Positions 1-61,400 of a stretch of 64,000 nt of DNA are shown here, piece after piece. A program made the translations under genes and the position numbers. The DNA comes from Takakia lepidozioides. Taxonomy: Eukaryota > Plantae > Bryophyta. Numbering within the stretch: position 1 is the first letter of the stretch; the number at the start of each line of letters is the position of its first letter. The stretch is from positions 2,480,001 to 2,544,000 of the forward strand of contig CM060733.1 in the NCBI GenBank assembly GCA_030704615.1, written 5' to 3'. The notes under the pieces are model-generated. The model made no database searches. It was not told the DNA's origin and saw nothing but the letters and a program-made list of their open reading frames with translations.

Positions 1-1654
1 TGATCTACAGTCATCCCTGTTGTAGGTCCAACCTGGCCTTCCGCTGCCAAGATACACAGAAATGCAGATGCATGCCATCCGGGCACCATCTCCTCGTCCG
101 TCTCACCATGCCACCGAGCTCCAGTGTCATCCTGCTGGCTCGTGCATGGATTGCGACTCAACCCATCTGCATTTCGATTGACCAAACCCGGTCGATGCAC
201 CACCTGAAAGTCATACTCTTGAAGGATGAGTGCCCACCGTGCAAGCTTCCCCGTAAGCTTGTCTGACTCCATCAACCACTTGAGTGGTTGGTGATCCGTG
301 ACAAGGGTGAAGAGATTGCCGTATAGATAGCACCTGAAGTGTGCCACGGCCCACACTGCAGCTAAGCATTCTCCCTCATATGAGCTATACTTAGACTCTG
401 CAGCATTGTTCGAGCGACTAGCATAAGCCACTACGAACTCTCTTCCCTCATCATCCACCTGTGTGAGCACCGCTCCAAGCCCCAGCATGCTCCAATCTGT
501 ATGCAGCTGAAAAGGACGCCCCCTGATAGGTCGTCTCAAGATGGGCGCCGAGGTCAACCTCGCCTTGAGCTCTTGAAAAGCTTGTTCTTGCTCATCTTCC
601 CACTGCCACTCCTGGTCCACCTTGGTCAGCTTGGTTAGAGCCTTTGCAATGGCACTAAATCCCTTAACAAACCGTCTGTAATAGTTTGCTAACCCCATGA
701 AAGCTCGAACTCGGCTCACATCCGTGGGACGTGGAACCTGTGCAATGGACTCTACCTTAGTCTGCTGTACCCCCAATCCTCCAGGATATATCATGTGACC
801 CAGGTACTCAATCTGGTTGTGGAAAAACTTGCACTTGCCCGGATGTAACTTCAATCCGTGCGTCCTCAAGCGCTCAAATACCCCCTGAAGGTGTCTCTCA
901 TGCTCCTCCACCGCAGCACTAAAGATGATGATGTCATCTATGTAGCACCGAGCAAACTCCACCCCTGCTAGAATCCTGTCCATGACTCTTTGAAACTCAG
1001 CGGGAGCGTTTTTAAGCCCAAATGGTAAGAACCGCCATGGTATAGGCAATCCTTCCCGTGCTCATTGATCCCCCAGAATGCCGTCTTTTGCTTATCCGCC
1101 TCCTTGATCGGCAACTGGTGATATCCGGATCGTAAATCCAACGTGCTAAAGACCTTGGAATGCCCAATGGCATCAAAGATCTCCTCTGGTGTTGGCATGG
1201 CATACCTATCGGACTTGGTCTGACGATTTACAGGCCGGTAATCACCGCACATACGTCTCTCCGTCCAATTGCCATAGACATCCTTCTTAGCTGGCATCAC
1301 TGTGGCTGAAGCATACTCTCCACCAGAGAGCTCCACCAAACCTGCCTCCCAGAGATCTTGAGTCCTCATCTGAATCAAAGACCTCTCCATGTCACTGTAT
1401 CTATAGGGTCTCCGAAAGATTGGCGTATCAGTGGCCAACTCAATACGGATCTCTTGACCCTTCAGTGCTCCCAAGTCCTTCAAACTGAAGGCAAAGCAAT
1501 TCCTGTAAGCCCTCAGGAACCGCCGTATACGTCGTCTCTCTCCTCCGGTGACAATGGGTCCAATGTCAGGCTCCCAATTGTCCTCCGTAACTGCAACCTT
1601 AAGTCCAGTGGGCTTAGAGGTAGAGGACCCGTCCCGTAGAGGTTCCCGTGGTTG
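1..1654 (-). pseudogene. Gypsy pol (RT + RNase H), in frame with the upstream ORF after one TAG, with a 1-nt frameshift at about 1038
   Basis: 1654-1483 is 171 nt, so this frame matches ORF 968..1483 (RMCGDYRPVN, FSTLDLRSGYHQ). After the frameshift the frame reads WRFLPFGLKNAPAEFQRVMD...CYIDDIIIFS (YIDD at 933-944)...FQLHTDWSMLGLGAVL...YEGECLAAVWA...LVTDHQPL...NADGLSR and stays open to the window edge. Confidence 0.9.
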
Positions 1655-4600
1655 CTATGCTGCAACCTCTTGAGCAGTACCCCCTTCCTGCTCAGTCAAT
1701 GACAAGGCCTCATCCTGCCCCATCATTTCATCATTGAGAACCTCCTCATCCCGAGAAGAATCCCCAACCTCATCCATCACAGCTGCCTTCGCTGCCAACT
1801 CCCTCTGAACCTCGAGCACCTCCCACATGTGCCATGGATGTCTACACCTCGTGGTCCTCACCGGCTCGCCCCCACTCGCTGCCTGTACCGTCTCGGTAGG
1901 CAGAGAGACCGTCAAGGGAAGTGCACTCCGCACTCTACGTTGCTCAGCCATAGCCAAGCTGACAATCCAGGTCAAGCAATTGAGATCCATTGCTTGCCCC
2001 AACACCTGACGACGTGATGCCTCAGAAAGAGAAGGCACCGCCGTGGTCCCAGTGGAAAACCCCATAGCCCGCTCTCGCTCGTCGGCATTAGGCTCCACTA
2101 ACTGCTGCAACTGAGCATCCCACAGGAGGCCAGGTCCACCATCCCGAAAAGCATGGGATCCTGGGAAGCTGAGCAGTGTAGGTAATGCTGCTCGTGGTTG
2201 ACCCACCCTGACCACTGCCAAAGGCGAACGGTCATCGTGTCTCACACGTTGAGACTGCCTTCCTGTGTCCAAAATGCCATCCACGGTGAGGTGTGCTGGC
2301 CGCTGCACCCCATCAAATGCACGCTTGAGCAGTGCGGGTGGCATCAAGTTAGTCCACCATAGTCGTGGACGATGAGCCCGTGACCCCACTGCAGCTGCAT
2401 CCAGCAACACTGCTGACCCAAGCCACGACCGGACTTGATGCACACTGGCCATCACCCTGGCCCGAGAATCACCCATCAGTGGTACATTCTCCAAGATGTA
2501 TGCTGGAGATACAGCTTGATGAAGCTGCAAGCAACGCAAAATCCGCACCATCTCCCAAAACAGACCCGTCCTCGAGTCTCGTAATCCATTGCCATGCCCG
2601 GCTGATGAATGCCCTTGGCAGGGCCAACCTGCCACTATCAGATCAATAGAGCCAACCTGCTCCAAATCTTGCGCCCCCAACAAGGAAATGTCTGCTGGCA
2701 AGGCTTGTTGGTATCCACGAACTGCAGACACAGGCAACAAGTCAGGGTACTGCTGTACCAACTGAGCCACATGGCGCAGTGAGACGCGTCGTGCAGTCTC
2801 ATCCCTCTCCACATACAGGTAACGCCTTACCCGCACACCTGCCTGTAGCACAGCAGCCAATCCGGTGCTGATCCCGCCAAACAAGTCCAGAAGGCAAATG
2901 CCTTCATCCGGCCGCTGCCATACAAGAGGTGTGGTGTCCAATGGCGACAACTGAGGTGGCCCTGGTGCAATCACCGAACTCTCCTCCTCTCCTGACGGTA
3001 CAAAAGCTTCTTCCCAAGCTTGTTGCACCCGTCCATCAGCAGCTTGCTGCAAATCTTTGCTCGTACCCCACAACGGGGTGTGAGCAACCATGGCAGGCAA
3101 CTCCGCCGTACCATGCATGTCATCCTGCTCTGCTGGAGGTGGCACATCCTCTGCATGGGCATTGCCTTCCAGCAACTCTCCAGGCCAACTAACGGCAGCT
3201 GTGAAGGCGGCTAGTGTTGGCATCTGGCCCCGCTGGGCAGCTGCAATACCCCCAATGAATGTCACAGGGAGCTGTGCACGGCGACCATCCCCTGACTGCC
3301 ATCCAGGCCTGTAGGATGCTGACTCCTCCCAGAAATCCAGGGTGAAGCCCATGGGGTATAACACTGCCCCACCAACGAGGACATCGTAAGAGACCGCGTC
3401 TGTCACAATGGCCTTGGCTCGCATCACTGAGCCATCTACAGGATGATCCGGCTGCAGTCTAATAGCCAACTGATGTCGTGTCATGCCGCGAGCCTGCTCT
3501 GATCCTCCCAGAGATGTCTGTATCTGGAAAGGACAAGGCTCCATATCCGCCTCCATGAGGCCCAAACCTGCAATAGCAGCTCTGCCCAACATCAGTGGCT
3601 GAGCTCCTGAGTCCAACAAGACCCGCAGTGGCCGGTACTTCTTGCCTGCCGGTCCACTCAAAGTAAAAATGCCTCCCTGGTTGTCTAACAAGACAACTCC
3701 AGGTGTCACCATGGCGCGCTCAATGGCTGGCCTAGCTGGCAGCTCCGTCAACCTAGCAGCTGCAGCTTGCCAGGGCGCTGCCGTGGCAGTCTTGACCCTC
3801 AAATCCGAGGATCCCTCTGCCACTACACCTTCCACTAACTCCGCAGAAGATGAAGTGACCTCCCCACTCTCACAGAGTGTTGCTGCTAGTCTGAACACTG
3901 CAGCTGGTCTCACCCCCGGCGTCGCAATCATTGTTGCCGAGAACAGTGGGGCCTGACACACAGAGGTGGCTGCCCCCAATAACACACCGGCCGCACTAGC
4001 CTTGGCAGCAGGAGTCAATGCTGCACGTGTAGCTCTCCCCAATGGCATAGTAACCTCCGCCTCGGTAACAGTCGGGCGAGAACTAGGTGCCATGGATGGC
4101 GTTGACACAGTCTCCGCCAATGTGAATGACTGAGGAAGCCTTGCCTGACGGCTTGCCTCCCCACGCTGTGGATCCAATTCCACCTCTGCACCTCGTGGCT
4201 CAGGAACTCGTGCTGCTCCTCGAGTCACGGCTGCAGCAGACTCCACCTGCTCTAGTGGTAGTGCTGCTCCGCACATAAATCCCATGCCTCCCATATCTCC
4301 TCCCTCAGGAGCAGGAGGTGGACCATCCCGCCTGGGAGCCGGTACCGCCTGAGCTATAGCCATGGCAGCGAGCCTCTGCTCTAGCTGCTGAAGCCGGTTG
4401 GCCATGCCTTGATCAACGCCCTGACCTCCGCGTCCTTGGCCATGTTGAGCTTGCCCTTGGCCTGCACCTCGTGCCCGACCACCTCGTCCTCTCTGGGCTG
4501 GTCCACCTCGCCCCCGGCCACCATTGTTCCCTTGGAACTGGCCTGGGCGCAACTCAGGATGCAAGTCATAACACTGGGCATCTCCATGCCCATACTTGCC

Positions 4601-5860
4601 ACAATGCCCACACTGCAACTGTGCAGGCTGTGCTTGTGCCGGCCTTCTGCCACTCTCTGGGCAATCTCTCTTGACATGGGGTCCTCCACATGTCCAACAT
4701 ATCACCCCTGGTTGCTGTTGGCCTGCAAAAGATGCCACGGGCCTCTGCACCTGAGGCCCCCTGTAAGCTCCATGGAACTTGGGCTGGGCAACCTTGCCCC
4801 CCTGACCACGCTGTTGGGCAGTCCCTTGTGCTTGTGGGCTGACAGCTGTGCCCCGTACAGGCATGTCCTTGCCAAATCCAATTGTAACAACTCGTTCCTC
4901 CACCATGTTGAGCTCAATCCGCTCAGCCAGCAGAAACACATCTGCTAATGTGGGTTGGGCTGCTTGTAACAGGGTTGCATCTCGCACCCTTCTCTTGAGC
5001 TCCTTGTCCAGAATTCCATACCAAAACTGGATTGCCTGAGCTTCAGTAACCCCTTGGGTCACACTTATCAAGCGCCTCATACGAGTGTACGCCTCTCGCA
5101 GGCTCTCACTGGGTTTGCGCTGGAAGTCTTGCAAACTTCGCAGCTTCTCTGTCCGTACACCTTGGTAGTTCCTCCGCAACTCCTGGAAGAACTCCACCAC
5201 CGGGTTGAATCTAGGCACATGTGTTGTAGTTGTGGCAGGAGGAGTAGTAGCACCTTCTGAACTGGTACCACCTGCAGAAGTACCAGCACTACCTGCTCCA
5301 CTACTAGTGCTGGCAGTGGGAGCTATTGGTACTGATGCAGCTACTGGTCGCGTCGTGCCTCGAGTAATGGAGATGTAGTCAGGTGACCAATACATCCTCC
5401 ACTCCTCAATCTCTGCTTCATGTCCTCGCCTGAACTCGTGGTAATCGTCCATAGGCGGGCCTTCCAAATGCTGGAACAGTCCCTTCCACGCCATGAATGG
5501 GGTGAATAGATGTGGATTGCGCATCTGCTGCAAATCACACCAGCTGTCGAACTCCTGGATAAAGTCATCCAACTCGATTGTGCCCACCGCTCCAGAGTAC
5601 CTACGAGGCCCCTTGGTAGCTCCATACATCTCCTCCATGTCGTCCCACAACAATGGCGAATGAAAGTGCACACCTGTTGATGAAGCCTCCGAGTCTGTGT
5701 CTGACTCTACAGTAATTGAGGGTGGCGGTGAAGGTGGTCTGAACCGAATACCTCGTCTTGTGAACCCACTCTCACTGTTACTGCCTGTAGCCGTACTCCC
5801 CTCAAAACCCTTGGGTAACTCCGTAATGACACTCACAATGTGCACCTCCTCCAGTGACAC
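1655..5860 (-). CDS. Gag - zinc knuckles - aspartic protease - C5 DNA methyltransferase (DNMT3-like) polyprotein
   Basis: Uninterrupted 1401-codon frame; first ATG at about 5638. Gag core FQRKPSESLREAYTRM; knuckles CWTCGGPHVKRDC and CGHCGKYGHGDAQC; protease LLDSGAQ at about 3602-3620. DNMT at about 1950-2900: LDLFGGISTG (I), DLIVAGWPCQGHS (IV, catalytic PC), YILENVP (VI), RAHRPRLWW (VIII), ERERAMGF (IX), RRQVLGQAM (X). Confidence 0.93.
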   Translation of the reverse strand: MSLEEVHIVSVITELPKGFEGSTATGSNSESGFTRRGIRFRPPSPPPSITVESDTDSEASSTGVHFHSPLLWDDMEEMYGATKGPRRYSGAVGTIELDDFIQEFDSWCDLQQMRNPHLFTPFMAWKGLFQHLEGPPMDDYHEFRRGHEAEIEEWRMYWSPDYISITRGTTRPVAASVPIAPTASTSSGAGSAGTSAGGTSSEGATTPPATTTTHVPRFNPVVEFFQELRRNYQGVRTEKLRSLQDFQRKPSESLREAYTRMRRLISVTQGVTEAQAIQFWYGILDKELKRRVRDATLLQAAQPTLADVFLLAERIELNMVEERVVTIGFGKDMPVRGTAVSPQAQGTAQQRGQGGKVAQPKFHGAYRGPQVQRPVASFAGQQQPGVICWTCGGPHVKRDCPESGRRPAQAQPAQLQCGHCGKYGHGDAQCYDLHPELRPGQFQGNNGGRGRGGPAQRGRGGRARGAGQGQAQHGQGRGGQGVDQGMANRLQQLEQRLAAMAIAQAVPAPRRDGPPPAPEGGDMGGMGFMCGAALPLEQVESAAAVTRGAARVPEPRGAEVELDPQRGEASRQARLPQSFTLAETVSTPSMAPSSRPTVTEAEVTMPLGRATRAALTPAAKASAAGVLLGAATSVCQAPLFSATMIATPGVRPAAVFRLAATLCESGEVTSSSAELVEGVVAEGSSDLRVKTATAAPWQAAAARLTELPARPAIERAMVTPGVVLLDNQGGIFTLSGPAGKKYRPLRVLLDSGAQPLMLGRAAIAGLGLMEADMEPCPFQIQTSLGGSEQARGMTRHQLAIRLQPDHPVDGSVMRAKAIVTDAVSYDVLVGGAVLYPMGFTLDFWEESASYRPGWQSGDGRRAQLPVTFIGGIAAAQRGQMPTLAAFTAAVSWPGELLEGNAHAEDVPPPAEQDDMHGTAELPAMVAHTPLWGTSKDLQQAADGRVQQAWEEAFVPSGEEESSVIAPGPPQLSPLDTTPLVWQRPDEGICLLDLFGGISTGLAAVLQAGVRVRRYLYVERDETARRVSLRHVAQLVQQYPDLLPVSAVRGYQQALPADISLLGAQDLEQVGSIDLIVAGWPCQGHSSAGHGNGLRDSRTGLFWEMVRILRCLQLHQAVSPAYILENVPLMGDSRARVMASVHQVRSWLGSAVLLDAAAVGSRAHRPRLWWTNLMPPALLKRAFDGVQRPAHLTVDGILDTGRQSQRVRHDDRSPLAVVRVGQPRAALPTLLSFPGSHAFRDGGPGLLWDAQLQQLVEPNADERERAMGFSTGTTAVPSLSEASRRQVLGQAMDLNCLTWIVSLAMAEQRRVRSALPLTVSLPTETVQAASGGEPVRTTRCRHPWHMWEVLEVQRELAAKAAVMDEVGDSSRDEEVLNDEMMGQDEALSLTEQEGGTAQEVAA

Positions 5861-6371
5861 TATAAGGCTCTAGTACTAATCTAATAGTGACACGGGTGGG
5901 CACCTGTTGCAGTCTAAGGGTCATATCCCAGTGGCTCAGGGCACCTGCACCTGCATCCACCGCAAGAACTCCTATGGTTGGCTGGTCATCAACCCAGCCT
6001 CACCATAGAAGAAACACTGGTGGTCTTGCTGGTCATCACTCCAGCCTCACCACCGACAGCATACTCTAGGATTGACCGGTGATCAAATCCGGCCTAATCC
6101 CTATGAAAGCAAGCGCCCACACAAAACCAACATGGCGCACAGTCAAGCATGCAGGTGTTGGGGGGATCCAAACACAAGAAATCAAAACATCAACACCCCC
6201 ACACCAAAATCCAGCTGCAATGCTGATCCTGCAGAATATCCCAGCCCAAAACCCCGGACTGACTGGCCTCCACCAAGAGAGGCTTTGGCAACTACAAGTA
6301 TAAGGTAATGAAAATAGTACAGAGATGGAGGGGAAGAATAGAAGCCCGCCCAAGCAAGATCTAACCCTGAT

Positions 6372-34290: not shown

Positions 34291-34607
34291 AGGGAGAGAT
34301 TCCCCTTTTTGGGGGGGGACCTGCACAAATGAGAAGGAGAGAGAGGGAAGATACTTTTGTCATGTCAAGACAAGGACGGGACCCCTAGGGTCGTTGTCAG
34401 GAAAAATAAGAATAATCAGACATATCAGCCACCTTTCAGTGGCACTATCCATCAATCATCAAGCTGGAAAATCCAGAATTACCTCAATGCACAATAATGT
34501 GTTCATGTCAGTAAAGAGTAAGTAAAAATACTGATTGAACACCAGTCATAATCAGGATATACATTCAGAGGTCTGGGTGGGATGGTGGCCACTTGGCCAC
34601 TTGGCCA

Positions 34608-35500
34608 TATTGATGTGTGTGTCCCACACAAACCACCATAATCTTTGCCTTCATTGCCAGGTTTATTATCAAGATGAAAGCCAAGTAAACCACGGCCAAA
34701 AAACTGATGTGTGTGTCCCACAAACCATCATAATCTTTGCTATCATTGTAAGGTTAAACAGGGCCTAAAAACTGATGTGTGTGTCCCACACAAGCCATCA
34801 TATTCAGCACCTGTATGTTTAACCTAACAGGTTGGAAGACCCACAAACTAATGTGTGTGTCCCACACGAACCATCATAATCTTTGCCATTATTGCAAGGT
34901 TTATTAACAAGCTGAAAGCCAAATAGACCAGGGCCTAAAAACTGATGTGTGTGTCCCACACAAGCCACCATAATCTTTGCCATCATTGCCATGTTTATTA
35001 ACAAGCTGAAAGCCAGTTAGACCATGGCCTAAGAATTAATGTGTGTCCCACACAAGTGATCATCTTCTCAGCCATCATTGAAAGGTTTAAACAAGGCCTA
35101 AGAACTGATGTGTGTGTCCCACACAAGCCATCATAGTCAGCAATTGTATGTTAAACCTCACAGGCTGGAGACAAAGCAAAAAAAGGCTACAAGCTGATGT
35201 GTGTGTCCCACACGAACCACCATGGTCTTTGCCATCATTGCCAGGTTTATTAACAAGCTGAAGCCAAGTAAGCCAGGGCCTAAAAACTGATGTGTGTGTC
35301 CCTCACAAGTCACCATATTCTCAGCCATCATTGCAGGGTTAAACACTGTCCGGGAAGGTACCCAAAGGGTTGCAGCAAACTATAACTTGCAACACCTATA
35401 TGTTTACCCTAACAGACCGGAGGCAAAGCAAATCAGGGCCTAAAAACTGATGTATGTATCCCACACAAACCACCATAACTTAGCCACCATTGCAGGGTTT
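34608..35500. repeat. Degenerate tandem repeat, about 10 units of 65-160 bp
   Basis: The core aaaactgatgtgtgtgtcccacacaa...ccataatctttgccatcattgc recurs at about 34611, 34703, 34770, 34849, 34940, 35038, 35104, 35194, 35286 and 35445. Confidence 0.85.
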
Positions 35501-38030
35501 AAACAATGCACGGGAAGGTACCCAAAGGGCTGCCGCAAACAATACATTGTAGTCCCTTTATGCTTAACCTGACAGGTTGGGGGCAAGGCAAGGCAGTCTC
35601 AGCCATCATTGCAAAATAGGGGCCCTCCACCAATCTGTAAAGGATTACCCACCACAAGTAGCACTATACTGTCCTTCACAGATCAAACATAGAGGTAGGA
35701 TCATGAAAAACATAGAGTAGTTTAGTTTTTCAGATTTCAAGATGAATCCACAGTCAGCCGCCATCTTCACTCCTTTGTAATCCTCATGGTACCCTGCAGC
35801 ACTTAGCAATCAGCATATTAAGTGGAAGCCCTCACCTGTGCCCGTCCCAAAAACAACCACAACGCATTGTGAGTTAGTGAGGATGCACGAGGAGAGTAGC
35901 AGGCTTCCACACTTGCTATCGAGGTCAAATACACTTGAATCTAAGCACAGAGAATGCCAAAGAAAGCAGGGAAGCAAGACAAACAGAAAAATAACCTTTT
36001 TTACTATTTGGGGGATGGTCGCCATCTCTCCACAAGCCCAACCGTGTAGGGAGGTCTCTGCCAACACCACAGCACTGCTACCTTAACCAAAGCAAAGTCT
36101 TGCCAAGCACAAGAAAAAAGAGCTTTGTGTCTCATAAGGTAGGGTTTATAAAGGGAGGGAGAGAGAGACTTCCTTCTTTTACCAAGACACCGCCATTCAT
36201 CAAAGATCCAGAGGAGGGCTCCTAAGGAAACTTCATAAGCAGGCAGGTGGTACCTCCGCCATCACTGCCTTTGTTCCCTTGTGCAGCAAAAAAACAGACA
36301 AATGAGACAGTGCCTTCACTCACCTCAAAAGAACCGCCGTCTCCCTAATGAATCCATAGGGGCGGCATTCATAGAGTCTTTAAACAACCCAAGGAGCGGC
36401 AACTCAACGTAACTGCAGCTCGAGCACCTCTCCTCTTCCATGCCGCCATTGCGCGATCCTTCAACGCAAGAGGCAAAAATATGGTTGCGCGGGGACCTTA
36501 CCTTGTCTTGCCTGATGAATTTCATCCAGCATAGCCTTGAGCCCGGCGGACAGATTCCAATTTCCATCAAGGTAGGATGAGAAAAATCAGGAAATTACAT
36601 AAAGGTTCAACACATCACAGCTATGGTATAGGCTGGATGAAATCAAGGTAGGCTATACTGAAAAATCGTAGGCAGTAATGAAAAATCAGATACGTGCCAA
36701 GGTAAAACGGATGAAACCAGGATGAAATTCATCCGGTTTTCCCTGCAACCCATATTTTAAGCACAAAAAATATGGAAGTCGGGATAACAATTCCATAGAC
36801 CCAGGTAACAGAGGGAGAGAGAGGGATAGAGGGGGCCAAGAAAATAAAAAAACAAGTGGGGGGGGGGGGGGGGGGGGGGTGGGGTGACTGAGCAGCAGCA
36901 GCTCAGCCCCTCTTTGGTTTTTTTTTTGTGAGTAGCTGAGGGACAGGGACAGATGGAGGAGAGAGACGGAGAAATGAGGCAAAAATAAATAAATAAAAAT
37001 AAATAAAAATAAATGGGCGGGGGACTGACTGAGCAGCAGCTGCTCAATCCCACCTTCATTTTTTTTTTTTCCCCCTCAACACTCCCTCTCTCTGCACATC
37101 CTGATGGGACAGAGGGAGAGAAAGGGACAGAGGGAGAGATGAGGGAAAATAAATAAAAAAGAAGGTGGTGGGGGGGGAGTGACTGAGCAGCTGCTGCTCA
37201 GTTGCTGGTGCTGCTTAGTCACCCCCCCCCCACCCCCCCAACCATCTTTTTAGATTTTTTTTCCCTCCTCACTCCCTCTTTCTCCCTCTCTCTCTCTCTC
37301 TCTCCACATCTTCATGGGACAGAGGGAGAGATGAGGGAAGATAAAATGTCTTGTTGAGACATGTACAAGACCAAACAAGGTCTTTGTCAATTTTTACGAC
37401 AAATCAGCTTCATAACGAGGCACTATCAATCACTCTTCATTCATAAACTAGTCTGATGACATATAACAGATCTCACGGTTCATGAAATTTCTGGGTGGGG
37501 GGGTGGGATTATATAAAAATCCGCTTCAGTATATGCTTCATTATGATGTTTGTCCAAATAGGGACCCAATCATGTATCACATGTATGGGTGTGCTTTCAG
37601 ATGTAACAATAGCAACTGTTCATAGCAGGTAAAACTTGTTTATCCTGCTAACATTACTCCCCATGATTACATTAACACTATGAAAAGGAAGTTCCAGTTT
37701 TTATGTAATCTTATGGCCATATCAAAGCATCAGACAGATTGTGAACCATTTACACATAAGGGGTATGACCTCATACCTTGTTTTTTTGTCCCAAGACCTG
37801 GTTTAGGTCTGGGGCCATTGTATAAATGTGGTAACAAGGTGTTGAGTAGCAATTAGTTATACATATTGCTACTTTTACCATTGTGTAGAGCAGGAAAGCA
37901 AGTCTTAAGATTGCTAAAATTTATCACCCATGGTTACATTGTATTTGTGCATACCAAACAGCAATGTAGGAGGTCGTATGGTATCCCAGCCATTGGGCTC
38001 TTGGCCATGTATGTTGTTTAATGCAGGCCC

Positions 38031-38662
38031 TGTCACGGACATAGCCCAGAAGAACTTATCAGGAGTAAATACCAGAAGTTACCAAGTTACCATGTTACCG
38101 AAAATTACTATGACTTACCATAATTTACCATGATCTACCATGATTTACCATTACTTACCAAGTTACCGGGTGTTTACCAAATTACCAAGAGTAACTTGAG
38201 AAACTACTCAGGAAGCTTCCTTTGGAGGAAACTTCTCCATCAAGATACCTCCTTTGTTTAAGGAAGCTTCTCCATCAATAAATCTTTGTTTAATCTTGGA
38301 AACTTCTCCAACAAGAAACCTCCATAGGGGAAGCTACTTAGGGAAGCTTCTTAGTAGCCAGTATATATAGGAGGCGAGACGGGACACTCTTCAGTCTCGC
38401 CAACACCAGTTCAAGTTACTCTTATTTCCAGTTCCCAGTACTCTAGCCCAATTTCCAGTATCTGGTACTCCAGTCCAGTTTCCAGCATTCCAGTATTCAA
38501 GTCGTGTTCCAATATCTTGTACTCTTGTTCATTGTTAAAAAGATCGTCTTGATTTCTATTTATTCATCGTGGATTCGGCCACGCCGACCTTGACTACTTG
38601 TCTAGCATTGTACCTCTAGTTTTATCTCTTGTTTGTGTTCAGTCATGTTCTCGTCCTTGACA
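38031..38662 (+). repeat. 5' LTR (632 bp)
   Basis: TG...CA termini, TATA at 38362-38369, and a close match to 45711-46297. Confidence 0.95.
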
Positions 38663-38664
38663 GT

Positions 38665-38675
38665 TTGGCGAGACT
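38665..38675 (+). promoter_or_regulatory. Non-tRNA, self-priming primer binding site
   Basis: TTGGCGAGACT is the exact reverse complement of AGTCTCGCCAA (38393-38403), about 24 nt downstream of the LTR TATA box. Confidence 0.75.
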
Positions 38676-38700: not shown

Positions 38701-39738
38701 ATGGAAGGCACATTTGCGGAAATGGTCACCACATTGCAGAGTCTTCAACTCCAGATGCAAGAACTTCGTACATCTACCGCCCAATTGCAAGCTGATTAGT
38801 CTCAAGATCTTGGCAACGCTCTCTACAATTTGCAACAACAAATTTCAGAGTTAAAAGAGTCGAACAATGGATCTTCAACCATACGAGTCCCTACTGCAAC
38901 AGCTCCTACTGCAACGGTTCCTCTTCAACAGATTACGAGAGAACCAAATATCAGCATGCCCGAGAAATTTGATGGGACGAGATCAAGATTTCGCGGTTTT
39001 GTTCAACAAGTACGACTGTTCCTACGATTACATCCACAACGCTACCCCGATGAAGGTATTCAAGTGGGATTCGTGGGCACCCTTCTATCAGGCACTGCCC
39101 TATCTTGGTTTGCACCGCTATTAGAAAAAAATTCGCATTTACTATATAATTTTGAAGCATTCATGTCCGAGTTCACTGCAATGTTTGGAGAAAATGATAG
39201 AGAGAGAGTTGCAGAAACAAAGATGCAAAATCTTCGACAATGATCACGTCTTGCTTCCGTTTATGCTGCCGAATTTCGACAACTTGCGTGCGACCTCGAC
39301 TGGAATGAGAAGAGCCTCATTAGTCAGTTTCGATGTGGACTAAAAGATGATGTAAAAGATTTGTTGCTGACAATGCCAAACGTGAGCACCCTGAGTGAAT
39401 TCATCACCCAAGTCATTACATGCAATCGTTTGTTCGAAAGACGTCAAGAGAAGCGATCTGGATGGTCGACGACGCATCATGTCACTGCTACTACGACACC
39501 AAATACAACGATCCATCAGACATCCAGTAGTGATCCTATGCAGATTGATGTTGTCCGATTCAAACCATTGACGCCACAAGAAAAACAAAGACGGCGCTCG
39601 AATGGATTATGCCTCTATTTCGGAGAAGAAGATCACATAGCCTTAAACTGCCCCAACAAGAGAAGATTCAAAGCTCGGGGCACAACTCAAATGTTCGATA
39701 CGAGGAGGTCGGAAAACGACGATGTCCAGTCACAGTAG
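38701..39738 (+). pseudogene. Chromovirus gag, with stops
   Basis: PEKFDGTRSRFRGFVQQV, LLSGTALSWF, DPMQID, and a degenerate CCHC GLCLYFGEEDHIALNCP. Confidence 0.88.
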
Positions 39739-39755
39739 GGACCATGCGGCTGGAC
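39711..39755 (+). promoter_or_regulatory. -1 ribosomal frameshift signal at the gag/pol overlap
   Basis: Slippery G_GAA_AAC (39711-39717), a 6-nt spacer and the stem gtccagtcaca/tgcggctggac. The -1 frame reads GKRRCPVTVGT into the protease. Confidence 0.7.
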
Positions 39756-41860
39756 GCCACAAATTTCTTACCGAAAAAAAATCTTTTTCTACCTCCAGAC
39801 CCTACACCTTGCTTCATAGTTCCAATAAAAATCAGAATGCAAAATCGAGATATCGTTGTAGAAGCACTTTTGGACTCAGGAGCTTCAGCTTGTTTTATGG
39901 ACAAAAACTTTGCGACGCAACACAATTTAACGCTCGTAAAGAAGAAATTTTCGGCCCCCGTTGAAGTCATCGATGGACGACCGTTAGCATCAGGAAATGT
40001 GGACCATGAAACTCGACCACTTGAAGTGAAGCTTAAAGATCAAGCATCACATATTGTTTTCAATGTCATCCAGTCTCCAATGAATCCTGTGATCCTTGAA
40101 CTTCCCTGGTTCATATTTCACAATCCCGACATCGACTGGTGATCGCGAAAAAATTCTGCAAGACAAAAATGTAGAAATATCAAAGGTACTCAACCCCTAT
40201 TCCTTGGAGCTAGAGCTTTCATGAGAGCTACAAAAAAGGAGGCGGTATTTGCACTTTATGCGACTCCGATCAAGACCACAACAGACAAATGTACTTCAAC
40301 ATTACCCGCTTAATATCAAGATTTCAAAGATGTCTTCGAGAAGAAAAATGCAGACATGTTGCCAGAACATCGACCTTATGACTGTGCAATTGAGTTACAA
40401 GAAGGAGCCCAACCACCATTCGGCCCAATCTATAACTTATCCCAGACGGAGTTGGCTGCATTACATGAATACATTGATGAAAATTTGTCGAAGCACTTCA
40501 TCCAACATTCAAAATCACTTGCGGGGTCGCCTATCTTGTTTGTGAAAAAGAAGGACGGATCATTACGCATGTGTGTCGACTATCGCGGTCTCAACAATGT
40601 TACAATCAAGAATCGTTATTCGTTGCCGCTGATTTCTGGGCTTCTCGACCAGCTAGGACGAGCGAAGATTTTCACCAAAATCGACTTGAGATGAGCCTAT
40701 AACCTTGTACGGATAAAAGAATGAGACGAATGGAAAACAACTTTTTGAACAAGGTATGGACATTTTGAATACAATGTTATGCCTTTCGGTCTTACCAATG
40801 CTCCAACAATTTTTCAACATATGATGAATGACATCTTTCGAGAATTTTAGATGACTTTGTAGTCATTTATTTGGACGACATTTTGATATTTTCACAGAAT
40901 GAAGAAAAACATGGCCGCCATGTACGCCTTGTCCTTGAAAAATTAAGAGAAAGAGGACTATATACCAAGTTGGAGAAATGTCTTTTTCATCAATCTGAGG
41001 TCGAATTTCTGGGCTACATTATTTCCGACAAAGACGTCTTTATGGATCAGAAGAAAATACAAACCATCATCGAGTGAATTAAACCAACTTCGGTCCGAGA
41101 TGTACAATGTTTTCTGGGCTTTGCAAATTCTATAGAATCTTCATCAATGACTACTCCAAAATTGCTGCACCGTTGACACGACTCACAGGGAAGGACAAAA
41201 TTTGTATGGGACGAGAAGGCTGACCAGACATTTGAAAGGCTGAAGCAAGCATTTACAACGGCTCCAATACTGGTACATGCAGACCCATCTAAACCATTCT
41301 TCTTAGAAGCAGATGCATCGGACTTTGCACTTGGCGCGGTACTCTCGCAATACGGTACAGATGGCCGACTCCACCCTGTTGGTTTTCGTTCTCGCAAATT
41401 TTCCGCTGCGGGGATCAATTATGAAATCCATGACAAAGAACTTCTAGCGATTATCGATGCTTTTGAGGAGTGACGACATCTATTGGATGGAGCTAAACAT
41501 CAGGTCACTATCTATACCGATCACAAAAACCTCGAATATTTTATGAGTGCTCGTGTTTTGAATCGACGTCAAGCGAGATGGAGTATGTCACTAGCAAGGT
41601 TTGATTTTGTTATTACCTACCGTCCCGGACATCTTCAAGGAAAACCAAATGCTCTTTCTCGACGATCGTATCTTGCGCCAAAAGAAGGGGATGCAGTTTT
41701 TGACCAACAAAAATTCATTATCTTGAAACCAGCAAATCTCCAATTGAATATGCTATCCATGTCTATCTATGACGATGCAGAGATCATAAAGGAGATTCAG
41801 GAAGCACTAAAGAGCGATCATTTTGCTACGACACTACGAAGTCAACTAAATCAACTTCGA

Positions 41861-43731
41861 ATTGGACACCACACCGATCATGAGGCAGTGTCCGGATGAA
41901 GGCATTTGCCTTCTAGACTTGTTTGGCGGGATCAACACTGGATTGGCTGCTGTTCTACAGGCAGGTGTACGGGTACGGCGTTACCTGTATGTGGAGAGGG
42001 ATGAGACTGCACGACGCGTCTCCCTACGCCATGTTGCTCAGTTGGTGCAGCAGTACCTTGAGTTGTTGCCTGTGTCTGCAGTTCGTGGATATCAGTAGGC
42101 CTTGCCAGCAGACATTTCGTTGCTGGGGGCGCAGGATTTGGAGCGGGTTGGCTTCATTGATTTGGTAGTGGCAGGTTGGCCCTGCCAAGGGCATTCATCA
42201 GCCGGGCATGGCAATGGATTGCGAGACTCGAGGTCGGGTCTGTTTTGGGAGATGGTGCGGGTTTTGCGCCACTTGCAGCTTCATCAAGCTATATCTCCAG
42301 CATACATCTTGGAGAATGTGCCATTGATGGGCAATTCTCGGGCCAGGGTGATGGCCAGTGTGCATCAAGTCCGGTTGTGGCTTGGGTCAGAAGTGTTGCT
42401 GGATGCAGCTGCAGTGGGATCACGGGCTCATCGTCCACGGTTATGGTGGACTAACTTGATGCCACCCGCACTGCTTAAGCGTGCATTTGATGGGGTGCAG
42501 CGGCCAACACACCTCACAGTGGATAGCACTCTGGATACAGGGAGGCAGTCTCAACGTGTGAGACACGATGACCGTTCACTTTTGGCAATGGTCAACAAGG
42601 TGGGTCGACCACGAGTAGCACTACCTACACTGCTCAGCTTCCCAAGATCGCATGCTTTCCGGGATAACGGACCTGGCCTCCTGTGGGATGCTCAGTTGCA
42701 GCAGTTAGTGGAGCCTAATGCCGACGAGTGAGAGCGGGCTATGGGTTTTTTCACTGGGACCACGGCGGTGCCTTCTCTTTCTGAGGCATCACGTCGTCAG
42801 GTATTGGGACAAGCGATGGATATAAATTGCTTGACCTGGATTATCAGCTTGACTATGGCTGAGTAATGTAGAGTGCGGAGTGCACTTCCCTAAACGGTCT
42901 CTCTGCCTACCGAGACGGTACAGGCAGTGAGTGGGGGCGAGCCGGTGAGGACCACGGGGTGTAGACATCCATGGCACACATGGGATGTGCTCGAGGCTCA
43001 TAGGGAGTTGGCAGCCAGGGCGGCTGTGATGGATGAGGTTGGGGATTTTTCTCGGGTTGAGGAAGTCCACGAAAATGGGGCAAGATGAGGCTTTGTCATT
43101 GACTGAGCAGGCAGGGAATACTGCTCAAGAGGTTGCAACATAACAACCACTGGACGCGTCCTCTACCTCTAAGCCCACTGGACTTAAGGTTGCAGTTACG
43201 GAGGACAATTGGGAGCCTAACATTGGACCCATTGTCACGGGAGGCGATAAACGACGTATACGGCGGTTCCTGAGGGCTTACAGGAATTGCTTTGCCTTCA
43301 GTTTGAATGGACTTGGGAGCACTGAAGGGTCAAGAGATTCGTATTGACTTGGCCACTGACACGCCAATCTTTCGAAGACCCTATAGATACAGTGACATGG
43401 ACAGGTCTTTGATTCAGATGAGGACTCAAGATCTCTGGGAGGCTGGTTTGGTGGAGCTCTCTGGTGGAGAGTATGCTTCAGCCACAGTGATGCTAGCCAA
43501 GAAGGATGTCTATGGCAATTGGACGGAGAGACGTATGTGCGGTGATTACCGGCCTGTAAATCGTCAGACCAAGTCCGATAAGTATGCCATGCCAACACCA
43601 GGAAGAGATCTTTGATGCCATCGGGCATGCTAAGGTCTTTAGCACTTTGGATTTACGATCCGGATATCACCAGTTGTCGATCAAAGAGGCGGACAAACAG
43701 CAGACAACATTTTGGGGGATCAATGAGCACG
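41861..43731 (+). pseudogene. Internal DNMT + RT N-terminal fragment from the DNMT-Gypsy family, inserted between RNase H and integrase
   Basis: Homologous to minus strand 2942 to about 1058 (LDTTP...[12 protein letters not shown]...WPCQGHS...ENVP...RPRLWW...FWGINEH). It has no LTR and carries several stops and indels. Confidence 0.93.
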
Positions 43732-45253
43732 ACAACCCACATGTTACAAACGACTTCGAATTCAAAGATGGCTTACTTTACTTCAAGGGACTTCTCTATG
43801 TACCTCCAGGACCTACGCGACTTCGAATTCTTCAAACATGTCATGATCTTCCGGCTGCAGGACATTTCGGCTTCAACAAAACATTGGAGTTGATATCCAG
43901 GGACTATTGGTGGCCGCAGATGTGGAAACTCGTGAAAGAATTCATAAAATCTTGTGACACGTGTGCTAAAGCGAAGGGACCACGACATCGACCTTACAGC
44001 CTTCTTCAACCATTACCCATTCCCGAGGGTCCATGGTCGTCCGTGTCTATGGACTTTATTACGGACCTTCCAATTTCCAAGACCACCGATTCAATCCTTG
44101 TTATTGTAGATCGTTTTACGAAGATGACACATTTCATTCCATATAATAAGACGGTTACCGGCGAGGAAACTGCAAGACTCTTCCTCAATAATATCTACCG
44201 CATTCATGGACTCCCGAAGGACATCGTATCTGATCGAGGACCACAGTTCATATCAAATTTCTGGAGGGGATTATTTCACATATTGGATACTAAGATCAAC
44301 CTCTCTACAACTAATCATCCACAAACTGATGGTCAAACCGAACGTGTAAACCAGATTTTGGAGCAGTATCTTCGCTGTACGATAAATTATCACCAAGATA
44401 ATTGGACGGACCTTCTGTTATTGGCTGAGTTTGCCTATAATAACAATATACGTTCTTCGACCAAGCAAACTCCATTTTTCTCCAATTATGGTCATCATCC
44501 TTGAGCAAACCATTTCCACATAAAGACTGTTGGAAGCCCTGCTGAAGAAAACCTTGCTACTCATCTAGCTACGATTCACAAGGAGCTTACATCTCACCTC
44601 GCAGAAGCTCAAAAACAATACAAGGAGTATGCAGATCAACGTCGCCAACTCCAACCCCAGTTCAAGGTCGGAGATCGTGTGTGGCTTCTTCAACGAGAGA
44701 TACAAACCTCGTGACCATCAAGGAAGTTGGATTATCAACGCCTGGGACCATTCAAAATTATTCGACAAATAAATCCAGTCAGTTTTCGGCTTGAACTCCC
44801 ACGAAGTATGCGCATCCATCCAGTCTTTCATGTTTCATTATTGGAGTTGTATCATCCATCGAATATTCCAGGGAGAGTCTCCGTACCACCTCCATTAGTC
44901 GAAGTCAATCAAGAACTTGAGTATGAAGTCGACGAAGTCCTAGACTCTTGCATCAAGTATAAACGTCTTGAGTATTTCATACATTGGAAAGGCTATGACA
45001 TCAGCGAACAAACGTGAGAACCTTCATCCAACCTCGCTAATGCATCTGATAAAGTCCAAGAGTTTCATCAATGATATCCAGCTAAGCCCCGAGCTACACG
45101 TCAATAAGACGTCACAACGATGATGTCCGTCAAGTTAGCTTCAAGGTGAAGACTCCACATTCAATGTACCTGATACACGCTAAAGAGAGAAGAGCCCCAC
45201 ACATCAGTATATATAGCTACACTTCCAACACTCTTGCATCTTGTATTGGCAGT

Positions 45254-45710: not shown

Positions 45711-46297
45711 TGTCACGGACATAGCCCAGAAGAACTTACCAGGAATAAATACCAGAAGTTATCAAAAGTTACCATGACTTACCATGATTTACCATTACTT
45801 ACCAAGTTATCGGGGGTTTACCAAATTACCAAGAGTAACTTAGGAAACTACTCAAGAAGCTTCATTTGGAGGAAACTTCTCCATCAAGATACCTCCTTTG
45901 TTTAAGGAAGCTTCTCCATCAATAAACCTTTGTTTAATCTTGGAAACTTCTCCAGCAAGAAACCTCCATAGGGGAAGCTACTTGGGGAAGCTTCTTAGTA
46001 GCCAATATATATAGGAGGCGAGACTGGACACTCTTCAGTCTCGCCAACACCAGTTCAAGCTACTCCAGTCCAGTTCCCAGTACTCTAGCTCAATTTCCAG
46101 TATCTGGTACTCCAGTCCAGTTTCCAGCATTCCAGTATTCAAGTCGTGTTCCAATATATTGTACTCTTGTTCATTGTTAAAAAGATCGTCTTGATTCCTA
46201 TTTACTCATCGTGCATTCAGCCACGCCGACCTTGACTTCTTGTCTAGCATTATACCTCTAGTTTTATCTCTTGTTTGTGTTGTTCTCGTCCTTGACA
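45711..46297 (+). repeat. 3' LTR (587 bp)
   Basis: Preceded by the PPT agaggagggaatga. It differs from the 5' LTR by substitutions and by indels, including in the ttaccatga micro-array. Confidence 0.95.
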
Positions 46298-48430
46298 GAC
46301 CCTATGTTTTTCTGGATTCCCTTTCAGTCTGTGATAGACAAATACCATGCTGAGATAGCCATAGATTGCCCCCAGAATTAAACCAAGCTCTGGGACTAAA
46401 GACAAAACATGTAATGTCTAGATCTGGATAACAGGCTGATTGACAATCTGGTTACAGCCCTACTATACATGTTGGGTTACTAAAAATGACCCTTGCTGGC
46501 TTTACTGATTTGGCTTGGACCAAATAACACAGTAGTGAGGCCTTTTTTGGAACCCAAACAATCTGTTTAAAGCCTTTTAAGACATCAGGGTTTTAACTTA
46601 TGCTGCCCAGATGTATCTCTATGTACTTATATTGATGCTTTGTGATTTTATAAGCACTTTGCTAGGGTATGTGTATGTTGTACCCAGATTGAAGCCAGGC
46701 TATGGAACATAATACAATTCCTATGTTATGTTCCCTGTTTACAATACTGACCTGCTACTGTGACTTGGAGCATACCAAGCAGCAATGTAGGAGGTCGTAT
46801 GGTATCCCAACCATTGGGCTCTTGGCCATGTATGATGTTTAATGCAGGCCCTCTGTTGTTTTTGGGTTTCCTTTCAGTCTGTGATAGATAAATACCCTGA
46901 TGAGATTGCCACAAATTGACCCCAGAACTAAACCAGGCTCTAGGACTAAAGACAAAACATGTAATGTCTAAATCTGGATAAGAGGCTGATTAACAATTTG
47001 GTTACAACTCTACGTTACATGTTGTGTTAAAATGACCCTTGCTGGCTTTACTGATTTGACTTGTACCAAGTAACACAGTAGTGAGGTCTTTGTTGGAATC
47101 CAGACAATCTGGCTAAAACCTTGTAAGACATCAGGGTTTAAACTTATGCAGCCCAGATGTATCTCTATGTACTTACATGGATGCTTTGTGATTTTATAAA
47201 CACTTTGCTAGGGCATGTGTATGTTGTACCTAGACTGAAACCAGGCTATGGAACATAATACAATAACCTCTGTTATGTTCCCTGTTTACACGCTGCTTAG
47301 TCACAGTAGCAGGCCAGTATTGTAAACCGAAAACAAGAGCACATATTGGGCTGTAAACAACAAATCCAGCCCATGATAGAGTGTAGTAATCAAAAGTAAG
47401 AGTCTTTAAAAGAAAGTATGTATTCTAGTAAAGCTCATCTAATGAACAATGCTCAACAAGGAGGGGTGGAAGCATAGCCAAAAAGGTCAAAAATATGGAA
47501 GCAGATTTGAATCAGCTCCCTGAAGATCAGTTGGAGTCGACATTGCCTCAATTGCTTGGATTCAATCAACTTCAAGCTTCATAAGTCATGTTAAGTGAGG
47601 GCCCTAACCTGGTCCCATCACATGCAATCAAAAAACAATGAAGTTAGTGAAGATGTGGAACCCCAGGTGAATATCAGGCCTCACGCTTGTTATCGCTGTA
47701 CAACATGCGTTCCAAAGCAAGAAGAGATCAAACGCAAAGCAAAGACAGTCCACAACCTTCAGGGTTTGTGGAAGAGGATTCGACATAGCTCCAAGAACTC
47801 GGCAATCGACATCACAAACAAGCAACGGTTTGCTGATTTCTACGAGCATTTTATCAAGTGAAGAGACTTCCTGAAAGTTTAAGAGCGGCGCTAGATCTTA
47901 ATGACCATTGAACGGATCGACAAACAATCACAGCTTAGGGTAGATTGTCCGCCAAAGGAAGAGACAACCTCATTGAGGGCATTGAAGTTTTGCCGCCATT
48001 GCATACCCCAAGGGGAATCGAAAAGTACTGGAATCTTGCCAGAGCACTTGCAGGCTGTCATAAAGCTTCTCTATAGCCATCAAATTCACAAGATTCGTGT
48101 TTAAATGAACCCTCTGACATCATCTCTCAGCTCCAGCAAATCAAAACGCACGAGTATCGTGCAGAGTTTTAGGGCGGAGGAAGAGATAGGGAAAACCTTC
48201 ACGATTTCATCCAAATTAGATGAAAAACAGATAATGAGATGTAAAGAACTTCCCTGATTTCCTCATGATGTCATCCAGTAGGGATGGCATCCAAAATAGA
48301 GTCTGGCTTTCATTAGGGTTAGTTCTCATGACCAAAATCATCCAAAGAACCCAGCTATCAAAGAATATTATTTAATGGAATTCATCCATTTTCATGATTA
48401 CATCCAGTATGGATGAAATTAAAATATGGT

Positions 48431-58442: not shown

Positions 58443-61400
58443 ATGGGAAAGAGGAAGCTGTCGCACGTCAAAGACACAGAAAGTGATGAGAAAGAGGGGA
58501 GTTTGAAAGCTCCAGAGGGAGGGGGCAGTGATGAGGAGACGGCTATGGAGGTGAAGGTCGTCGGGGAAATGCTGAGAAAGTCAGGGAAGGGCAAGTCTGA
58601 ACGTAGGCATTATCAAGCTTTTGAGGTGGATGACTGTCGGTATGATATTGTGAGAATTCAGACCTCAAGACCCTTTCTGTTTGTGTGATTCCCCGTAATG
58701 CGAGATAATTTGGAACTAGACTCATACATGCTGGACAAAGACACGAGTTTTTGGGGGAAAGAGACCTGAGACGATCATTTGGAGAGTGTTTTGGTAAACA
58801 GAGTAGATGTTTCGGCAGTCGTCTTCTTATACAGAAAGTAAGGCAGCCCCATCTTCACAATCCTTGATCGGCAGGTCTTACAAGAAAACCTCGCTAGTAG
58901 CGTATGGATTTAGTATCTTGCGTCTACAAGTTGAGTCTCATCCAACTGGTGAATGGCATGTACTGAGGGCCTAACGGCTGCAAGGTTATAGCATCCTGCA
59001 TTGCACTTAAAATTACTGAACCCTTTCTTTGCCGCTCAAACCTGAGTCACGTCTTATGTGAGGCTGGAGAGCAGCTTGGTCACAACAGTTACTGAAGGCT
59101 TGGCTTGCTTCAGCATTGGGACTTGCACAAGCACCATAAGTAACGACCTTCACAGCAACTAACATACATAGGAGGGTGGCAGTATTAGAGCTTGTGTTGC
59201 ACTGTCCTGACCACTGGAGGAGAGTGTGACGCTTATGACTCGAAGTGGCCTCTCGCTCCACCACCATTGTAGGAATCCTTGCTAATGCCATATCCCAAGT
59301 GCACTTAATGCCAGGCTCTAGGCTGCGGCAAGCCTGTGTTGTCAGGGGGTATGAAACATGCAATCCTCAAAGCAAAGAAAGATTTATCCAGAGTAACAAC
59401 TTGACATTCAAACAAAGTTGTAGATGAGGCAGCACAGATGAGCCATTAAATTTTTTATTTTACACTCTAGCTGATCCATTGGCGTTGTGTGTAGGGGGAG
59501 GTGGCAGTATTTTTAACTGAGATTTGAGTTGTATGCATGAGCTAAACCTTCCAAGATCCTCTGATTCTTGGACAACCTCATGATAGCAGAATGGTCAGCA
59601 TGCGCCTACCATTGATAGTCTTGCAGGATCAGTCCAGGTTTGCATGCTTTCAAGGGCATTTTTTGTTTCTTAAAGGCGTGAAGAGATGTAATGGTGTGTA
59701 AATTTCTTAGTGGTTCATGCCGAACCTGTTTAAAGGGTGGTTTGTCTACATAATACATGTATCATGCTAGTGTGCTGGGTTCCTCCCACTACATTTGCGA
59801 GTTGTGCATAGCAGTAGGTTCTCCATTCTGTTTTTGGAGCTCTATCCACTGGTCACAGGAGTTCCTGTTGAGATGCGCACAAATTCAAATCTGCTCACTC
59901 TCCCTTGAGTTCAAAATACAAAATAATTTCATGGGTATTTGGCCAAGTGCTACTCACTTCTCGAGGTTTCAAAAGCTGACAACTCTTGTTTGCTTGAGGA
60001 TGTTTGCTTTAGGATGGTTGTTGTTGACAACGAAGAGAATGAGCTTATACCAAGTGTATTTGTGTAACTTAGCAGGTCAGTGAGATTGTCTGTCATGTCT
60101 TTGCAAGTTACTGGACTACAGACTGCTTTGTCCAAAATCCTCAACCAATCAAGTTACTTAGTGCCATTATCTTAGGACTAACGCAGCAGTTGTTCGTGTG
60201 TTTCTTTGCAGGACGACCCTGTGTTAGTCACACCCGAGAAGAATGGCCAAAAGCCCTATGTTGCAATCATCAAGGTAAGCCAGCTGGGTGTTGTCACGTC
60301 AGGTCTTTTGCTGGACTACATACCAGGCGAAATGGGTTGCTCTAGGAACTAGGAGGGGGCCTTTGTCTCAGATGCAGAGTCTCACCCTGATTTTGCTTTT
60401 GTCCTCCCAGGAAATTAAACAGACAAGAGATGGGTCGATCCAAGTTACAGGCCAGTGGTTCTACCGGCCCGAGGAGGCTGAGAAGAAAGGTGGGGGCACA
60501 TGGGTATCTACCGACTCCCGCGAGCTTTTCTACAGTTTCCACATTGACGAGGTTCCGGCAGAATCAGTAATGCATAAGTGCCAAGTCTACTTCATTCCTC
60601 CCCAGAAGCAGCTGCCTCTGCGTTCCAAGCACCCAGGTTTTATAGTGCGCCGGGTGTATGATGCATGTGAGAAAAAATTGTTCAATCTCACTGACAAGGA
60701 CTATGAAGATCCAATGCAGAAGGAGATAGACTTGCTTGTACAGAAAACAAGAGATGCATTGGGAGATTTACCCGATGTTGAGGGAGAGGAAACTGTGCCC
60801 ACTGGAGAGGATGAATATGCTGATCCCAAGGCCAAGCGGCAACGGTCTGTGAGGAGGATGACACCTCTTAATGTCAATAGGGAAGATGCACTGGCCATAG
60901 AAATAGGAGGGAAGGTTGAGACTCCACCAGGGAAGTCTGAAACAGTTGGACGGGGCGATACGCCTACAAGCTGTGGAGGGCCAGACCTTGAGGTCTCATC
61001 TCTTTTGCGAACCCATAATGTGCACTTTGGTGTTCATGCACGAGACCGATGGCTGGAGAAGCTTGTCCATACTGTGAGGGATCTCTGTGGAGGAGGTAAA
61101 GGTTTCCGTGTACGAAATGGAGGGGAGGACACTTCAAACAAGGACAACATGAGTGGTCTCACAGAGTTGGATGCAGGTGCGGCTAGCAAGCCTCAGGATG
61201 GAGGTGAAACAGAAGCTTCAAAACAAGGATCAGCTGAGGAAAGTGTCTTGGTAGGTTATGTTCCCCTTGAGCCTACTTGAAAGGTGTGGAATAATAATTA
61301 GCTGGTCTGTTTTGCTGACTCTTCCGATATACCTTTTAGTTTTCTTAACAAACATTCTTGAAACATCACGTGATGCAGACTGCTGTGATGTTCAGAGTGA

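Follow-up and report, generated by a model that had tools for sequence, protein, structure and literature searches.

A DNMT3-Gypsy fragment in the RNase H-integrase linker of a Takakia lepidozioides chromovirus

A Gypsy retroelement with a DNMT3 domain, KnitGypsy-Dnmt3, has been described in Klebsormidium nitens (PMC5890265). Within a window of 64,000 nucleotides of Takakia lepidozioides DNA, the whole stretch analysed here, we examined a fragment of a family that resembles KnitGypsy-Dnmt3 in two respects: an intronless DNMT3-related domain lies within a Gypsy polyprotein, and copies have been under purifying selection. The present locus differs in that the fragment is an orphan inside a chromovirus and in that its family has its nearest named relatives in Marchantia polymorpha and Sphagnum fallax; the two systems are likened by description only, and the main text of PMC5890265 makes no mention of Marchantia, PHD or readthrough. 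In the literature searched, which covered few subscription journals, no title or abstract opening reported a bryophyte DNMT3-Gypsy family or the order RNase H-DNMT-integrase-PHD. The host can be likened, again by description, to the Tcn1-like chromoviruses of non-seed plants (PMC2864245), with which it shares TG...CA LTRs, a 5-bp target site duplication (TSD), gag and pol in separate frames, and the order protease, reverse transcriptase (RT), RNase H, integrase and chromodomain. DAM and DNMT4-sister domains have moved among retroelements, some to a position between RT and integrase and some in chromovirus-like elements (bioRxiv 10.64898/2026.05.21.726589), and the crossing of methyltransferase domains between retroelement lineages has so far been inferred from tree conflict in that work. 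Those DAM-LTR and EpiLTR elements form in-frame, multi-copy clades, whereas our insert is a single, out-of-frame DNMT3-like piece that gives no sign of spread.

Two kinds of documented event provide the closest comparisons for the insertion itself. Pieces of Ty1 cDNA between 140 bp and 5.6 kb long have been captured at breaks in yeast (PMC1976456), doubly truncated MuERV-L pol pieces without LTRs have been captured in mouse zygotes (PMC4516963), and 54% of numt insertions are reported to lack a deletion (PMC2567098). Like our insert, these Ty1, MuERV-L/MaLR and numt captures are doubly truncated, lack LTRs and integrase-type TSDs, and entail little or no loss of target sequence. Unlike them, ours is a natural plant event that targets another retroelement and is known without a pre-insertion allele. 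LTR-mediated capture by double template switching (PMC5131818, and Bs1 cited there) likewise yields foreign sense-strand sequence between two LTRs with a TSD. However, all 15 chimeras in that set replaced host ORF sequence, and in none of them did foreign sequence simply interrupt an otherwise continuous element; microsimilarity, with a median of 6 bp, was present at 25 of the 29 junctions. In our locus nothing is replaced and the junctions share 0-1 nt.

The host chromovirus, the insert and the donor family

The host is a complete chromovirus (Table 1). Its domains follow the Gypsy order from protease to integrase and end in a partial C-terminal chromodomain (PF00385, 26.2 bits against a cutoff of 25.1). 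The LTRs are paired, with TG...CA ends and a 5-bp TSD with one mismatch, and differ by 29 substitutions over 587 sites (K2P 0.051). The left part of pol contains seven stops and is frameshifted near 40845 and at 41129-41203. Among the best 120 of 7575 host relatives, the closest are P0067 and P0068, with 78-79% identity in integrase. Shortly after the 5' LTR, an 11-nt stretch is, from its complementarity to the LTR, a likely candidate primer site for self-priming of reverse transcription. Such priming would be of the Tf1 type. The target of the chromovirus was a tandem repeat unit of approximately 550 bp (37949-38030, 46303-47290), a sister unit of which, near 46770-46880, provides an uninterrupted site.

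Table 1. Positions of host, insert and donor-family features in the window
Feature	Position	Strand	Remarks	Basis
DNMT3-Gypsy copy, separate and less decayed	1..5869	-	runs off the window at position 1; 1057-2942 is the insert homologue	self-comparison, PF00145
Host TSD, left copy	38026..38030	+	GGCCC; right copy GACCC at 46298-46302, one mismatch	
Host 5' LTR	38031..38662	+	TG...CA	LTR comparison
11-nt stretch just inside 5' LTR	38665..38675	+	perfect complement of LTR positions 38393-38403	
Host gag	38701..39738	+	2 premature stops	
Host pol, left part	39744..41860	+	protease, RT, RNase H, start of RNase H-integrase linker	69-73% identity to P0067 residues 1-702
Insert, internal fragment of DNMT3-Gypsy family	41861..43730	+		self-comparison, junction analysis
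DNMT3-like C5 methyltransferase domain	41913..42821	+	motif I-X; host pol in another frame	PF00145
Family-conserved stop, then CAA CCA	43141..43149	+	between gag-protease-DNMT frame and RT frame; readthrough-type context	
Donor-family RT N-terminal piece	43150..43730	+	ends mid-domain; two +1 insertions	self-comparison
Host pol, right part	43731..45098	+	remaining linker, integrase, SH3-like part, chromodomain; 4 stops	PF00385
Host 3' LTR	45711..46297	+		

An earlier, sequence-only reading had described a 1.87-kb internal piece of a DNMT-Gypsy, including the whole DNMT domain and the RT N-terminus, in the same orientation as a chromovirus and within its RNase H-integrase linker. Comparison of the window with itself bore out this description. 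Positions 41861-43731 match 1057-2942 of the minus-strand DNMT-Gypsy copy at 1731 of 1891 sites (91.5%), the insert has the same sense as host pol, and the sequences on either side map to the linker. The insert itself measures 1870 bp, since g43731 is common to insert and host as a 1-nt microhomology. Its GC content is 53%, against 42-43% in the flanks. It is truncated at both ends and carries no LTR, no integrase-type TSD and no poly(A) between 41861 and 43730; the lack of an LTR and of a 4-6 bp TSD had been recognized before. All C5-MTase motifs are present, from motif I (41913), which begins 17 codons in from the left end, to motif X (42804), and are followed by the RT N-terminus. The DNMT domain is thus whole in extent, but it is interrupted by two stops between motifs I and X and is followed by two more.

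The assignment of the insert to the DNMT-Gypsy family also held, although the copy in the window, 39 kb away, is a relative and not the source. We rejected it as the source on a synonymous divergence (dS) of 0.167, compared with 0.051 between the host LTRs. Because insert and copy differ by this dS and by a dN of 0.048, the source must have been another family member. The mismatches to this copy include a cluster at 41876-41892, just inside the left junction, which is explained in part by the residues of relatives and probably represents lineage difference plus decay.

The C5-MTase of the donor family is intronless, of the DNMT3 type and embedded in the Gypsy polyprotein. Its catalytic motifs are retained (FGG, PCQ, ENV and the motif VIII arginines), the top matches of the donor-copy DNMT in a PDB sequence search were DNMT3A, and the named relatives of the DNMT region come from Marchantia polymorpha (up to 73% amino acid identity) and Sphagnum fallax, with no named Klebsormidium sequence among the matches listed. 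The copy in the window has a gag-protease-DNMT frame of 1404 codons and, after one stop, RT-RNase H. The stop between DNMT and RT reads TAG CAA CCA in this copy (1655-1657, minus strand) and TAA CAA CCA in the insert, and the pattern TAR CAA CYN occurs there in 31 of 49 loci scored (L001-L066). The window sequence TAG CAA CCA matches the readthrough motif CARYYA (PMC4132726). This context suggests that RT is produced by readthrough and that DNMT is made together with gag. As predicted from sequence, a conserved readthrough-type stop would make DNMT part of the gag-side product, the more abundant one, in this bryophyte family.

Junctions, coding state and age of the insertion

Breakpoints were defined by comparison with uninterrupted relatives. 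The tblastn alignment of P0067, the closest host relative, stops at residue 702 (41848) and restarts at residue 707 (43731), with exactly four window codons in between, and the projected linker gap is zero residues for both P0067 and P0068. The host flanks are therefore consecutive codons of the closest relatives, the insert occupies 41861-43730, and no host codon was lost. This zero loss is inferred from P0067 and P0068 because linker length varies among the other 43 of the 45 host relatives listed, most of which differ by between -10 and +66 residues, with -45 in one partial alignment. Exact microhomology amounts to 0 nt at the left junction and 1 nt at the right, as scored against the copy in the window, a relative of the source (dS 0.167). 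These values are at chance level: 85% of 20,000 random junction pairs had no more than 1 nt. Gapped similarity at the junctions was not significant (p 0.15 and 0.37), and a fuzzy resemblance of the host right flank to the first bases of the insert was discarded on the former value.

A cga triplet had been noted at both junctions, and it does occur at both. It is not a duplication: c43730 and g43731 match the donor, so the right-hand 'cg' is donor sequence. Reading cga as a TSD was rejected because it would mean that the host integrase was already out of frame, yet the relatives show consecutive codons. Insertions by LINEs and Helitrons are recognized by poly(A), TSD and element ends. LINE-mediated or Helitron-type insertion was accordingly rejected, as there is no poly(A) or TSD and the ends ATTG...GCAC do not fit.

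The same boundaries bear on two further explanations. A full DNMT-Gypsy might have integrated normally into the chromovirus and later been trimmed at both ends by deletions. Among composite patterns in plant genomes, nested insertion is the most frequent (PMC1950507), and the family is present 39 kb away, but the insert has neither LTRs of its own nor a 4-6 bp TSD, and two deletions, independent of each other, would have had to stop precisely where host sequence begins and to take away both ends of the element together with one TSD copy while sparing every host codon; we regard this course of events as very improbable. Equally hard to credit is an assembly error joining two repeat families. 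Both families are repeats, but two false joins with 0-1 nt of overlap, the second returning to the very next host codon, would be unlikely in an overlap-based assembly, and the insert has stops and indels of its own that are absent from the copy in the window.

Host pol read into the insert meets a stop at 41897, after 12 codons, and the methyltransferase is in a different frame. Its four stops lie at 42096 and 42729, between motifs I and X, and at 42864 and 42891 beyond them; farther downstream are an 8-nt loss, the family stop at 43141, a 12-nt loss, two +1 insertions and the cut RT. The right junction had been called in frame with integrase and the left off by one. Both statements are correct, but the right junction joins just the last 43 RT codons to integrase, and the two +1 insertions and the family stop separate these from DNMT. 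The insertion disables host pol. Because it parts RNase H from integrase, we infer that the host copy could not have been autonomous afterwards.

Decay was compared at conserved columns, of which 37 of 513 are hit in the host, 7 of 139 in the insert (omitting changes common to the in-window copy) and 1 of 139 in the in-window copy; host and insert do not differ significantly (Fisher p 0.45). Columns with less than 45% local identity were dropped, which leaves 25 of 301 for the left host part (36 of 316 unfiltered, a value inflated by an out-of-frame stretch). Intact host relatives give a baseline near 1.3%. Stops are likewise not significantly rarer in the insert, with 4 in about 623 codons versus 11 in 1136 for the host (p 0.60). 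When amino acid changes were polarised over 535 codons, 29 fell on the insert branch and 13 on the donor branch, with 10 unresolved. The excess of the insert over the donor copy is 0.013 +/- 0.011 per site, versus 0.026 (0.017-0.036) for each LTR. From these estimates the insert is old and perhaps somewhat younger than the host, with equal age compatible with the data. Between insert and in-window copy, dN/dS is 0.29 for the whole fragment, 0.20 for the RT piece and 0.28 for DNMT, decay included.

The sequence-only reading had offered template switching or break-repair filler as sources. Filler fits the junctions better, and on balance we favour, by no wide measure of confidence, capture of the fragment by end-joining repair of a double-strand break in the integrated chromovirus, out of frame and between consecutive codons. 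A break would have opened within the RNase H-integrase linker, and doubly truncated DNMT-Gypsy DNA, either a cDNA fragment or a copy of a genomic element, would have been ligated in nearly blunt. The capture would date to the older part of the life of the host copy. The product would have been unable to make integrase or methyltransferase, and neutral decay would have followed. Such a history is consistent with a doubly truncated fragment without LTR, TSD or poly(A), with 0 and 1 nt of microhomology, with the retention of every host codon and with point estimates that place the insert somewhat later than its host. Several observations fit less well. Shared sense is a coin toss under break repair and is required by template switching; the decay of the insert is not significantly below that of the host (p 0.45 and 0.60), which makes formation at integration compatible with the data; and the left end 17 codons before motif I, in the very site that serves a sister lineage as its DNMT slot, presents coincidences that the model does not explain. 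The cited break captures often have short microhomologies (PMC4516963, PMC1976456), and the precedents all come from yeast and animals.

Alternatively, RT may have jumped end-to-end from a nicked host RNA to a co-packaged fragment of DNMT-Gypsy RNA and back, so that a chimera integrated once, already defective. Template switching of this kind keeps a real though clearly lesser claim, because insert and host pol have the same sense and the decay of the insert is indistinguishable from that of its host; both LTRs and the single TSD are also as such a jump would leave them. The dN/dS of 0.29 over the fragment would further suggest that members of the source family were under purifying selection until shortly before. 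Double template switching is documented for LTR elements (PMC5131818) and has been proposed for plants (PMC1950507). However, the plant cases join whole elements via shared LTRs (PMC1950507), co-packaging would be needed across two distant lineages, and, unlike the chimeras of PMC5131818, the present one shows neither replacement of host ORF sequence nor microsimilarity beyond chance. Break repair is favoured over an RT jump because published template-switch chimeras replace host sequence, with about 6 bp of microsimilarity. In rough terms, we weighted the shared sense about two-fold for template switching and the junctions about three-fold for break repair, and treated age as neutral.

Methyltransferase carriage among related Gypsy elements

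It had further been suggested that the insert offers a snapshot of a methyltransferase module spreading between retroelement lineages. Related proteins were pooled (n = 329) from three sets: 60 matches, restricted to lengths of 772-2457, the 150 best-ranking of 4644, and the top 120 among 7575 host relatives; domains were assigned with our own profiles, and 29 and 22 of the pooled proteins were checked with Pfam. DNMT was found in 209 of the 329, lying after RNase H in 79 and before RT in 10, with a further 95 uninformative in containing DNMT only. By the same profiles, none of the 209 relatives sampled carries a chromodomain, and none of the 120 host relatives sampled carries DNMT. A large group with the order RT-RNase H-DNMT-integrase-PHD (P0032-P0055 and many of P0181-P0329), which is complete in 43 of the 209, stands apart from the protease-DNMT-RT group in the trees of both RT-RNase H and DNMT. 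As judged from these proteins, a sister lineage thus carries DNMT natively in the RNase H-integrase linker.

In the RT-RNase H tree (43 rows, none of them a named Tcn1 reference, unrooted, without another Gypsy outgroup and with 19 of 89 host relatives hand-picked), all 23 DNMT carriers are separated from 20 chromovirus-side rows with support of 100/100, and the carriers are themselves divided by DNMT position. The DNMT tree (47 rows, with 22 of the 56 after-RNase H rows drawn randomly and 16 rows without full RT placed by us in the other group) requires a single change of DNMT position (SH-aLRT 98, quick method). Within what was sampled, these trees suggest that DNMT has been inherited within one PHD-bearing Gypsy lineage and changed its position once. 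P0216, which scores slightly better with our chromovirus RT profile (112 versus 95), was not counted as a transfer, since the end of the protein truncates its RT and its DNMT falls among those placed before RT.

Genomic loci gave a similar result. We examined 80 related loci (67 clusters at 98%) out of at least 93, and neither a chromodomain nor an integrase of chromovirus type occurs in any of them. At 31-80% identity, these loci speak for relatives rather than for the source genome. In four of the 80, a stretch is best matched by a chromovirus query at just 29-38%, three of these resembling the element's own integrase zinc finger and the fourth being L033. An 'RTchromo' profile matches eight of the 80, in each case within the N-terminal portion of the RT that belongs to the element itself, and such matches would reflect an RT region outside the coverage of the other profile. 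L033 (2036-3420) contains another join of unlike Gypsy elements: its DNMT-Gypsy copy ends within RT at 2036, beyond which a decayed RT-RNase H from a second kind of Gypsy (27-29% to chromovirus queries) continues in the same sense.

Spread between families is unsupported because the methyltransferase is out of frame, host pol is disabled, the RT piece is not relaxed, and neither the 209 proteins nor the 80 loci include a chromodomain-bearing DNMT element. We nonetheless retain, at low probability, the reading that the present copy belongs, in decayed form, to a young chimeric family, in which a land-plant chromovirus received an entire DNMT3 domain in the linker between RNase H and integrase and transposed with it, because that linker tolerates DNMT: of the 79 relatives out of 209 with DNMT after RNase H, 60 have integrase next. 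On this account the chimera was in frame in an earlier copy, and the left-junction frame was lost later in the present one. A left end only 17 codons before motif I and an in-frame right junction would suit it, as would the reported movement of methyltransferase domains between retroelement classes, chromovirus-like elements included (bioRxiv 10.64898/2026.05.21.726589). It would, however, require a 1-nt indel exactly at the junction, when the 1870-bp insert has about four indel events altogether, and would set the family stop and half an RT before integrase. The redundant RT piece also shows no relaxed selection relative to DNMT (dN/dS 0.20 versus 0.28; dN 0.029 versus 0.052). With these points and the zero counts among DNMT relatives, host relatives and loci, the account appears improbable.

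The chimera represents a type of event and a type of element that are both already known, and is most likely a dead end. Read so, it has little consequence beyond offering a clear case, from nature, of the material on which domain shuffling can draw, in which a whole enzyme domain was placed in a permissive linker of an unrelated element, one base out of frame. If other copies with the same junctions exist, they would give a base-resolution view of methyltransferase domains crossing retroelement lineages, and a true chimeric family would mean that a chromodomain-targeted element had been caught in the act of acquiring a de novo methyltransferase. The lineage with DNMT between RNase H and integrase and the readthrough-type stop may outweigh the insert in value.

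Some DNMT-Gypsy relatives carry extra domains, namely peptidase S26 in P0036 and G-patch in P0283. Elsewhere in the window, a 333-codon frame at 60279-61280 on the plus strand contains a BAH domain (PF01426, 1.8e-14) and is possibly a chromatin-related host gene or element. A 96-bp tandem repeat at 21030-21700 has open frames on both strands, and 34600-35500 is an array of 70-95 bp units with the common sequence TGATGTGTGTGTCCCACAC.
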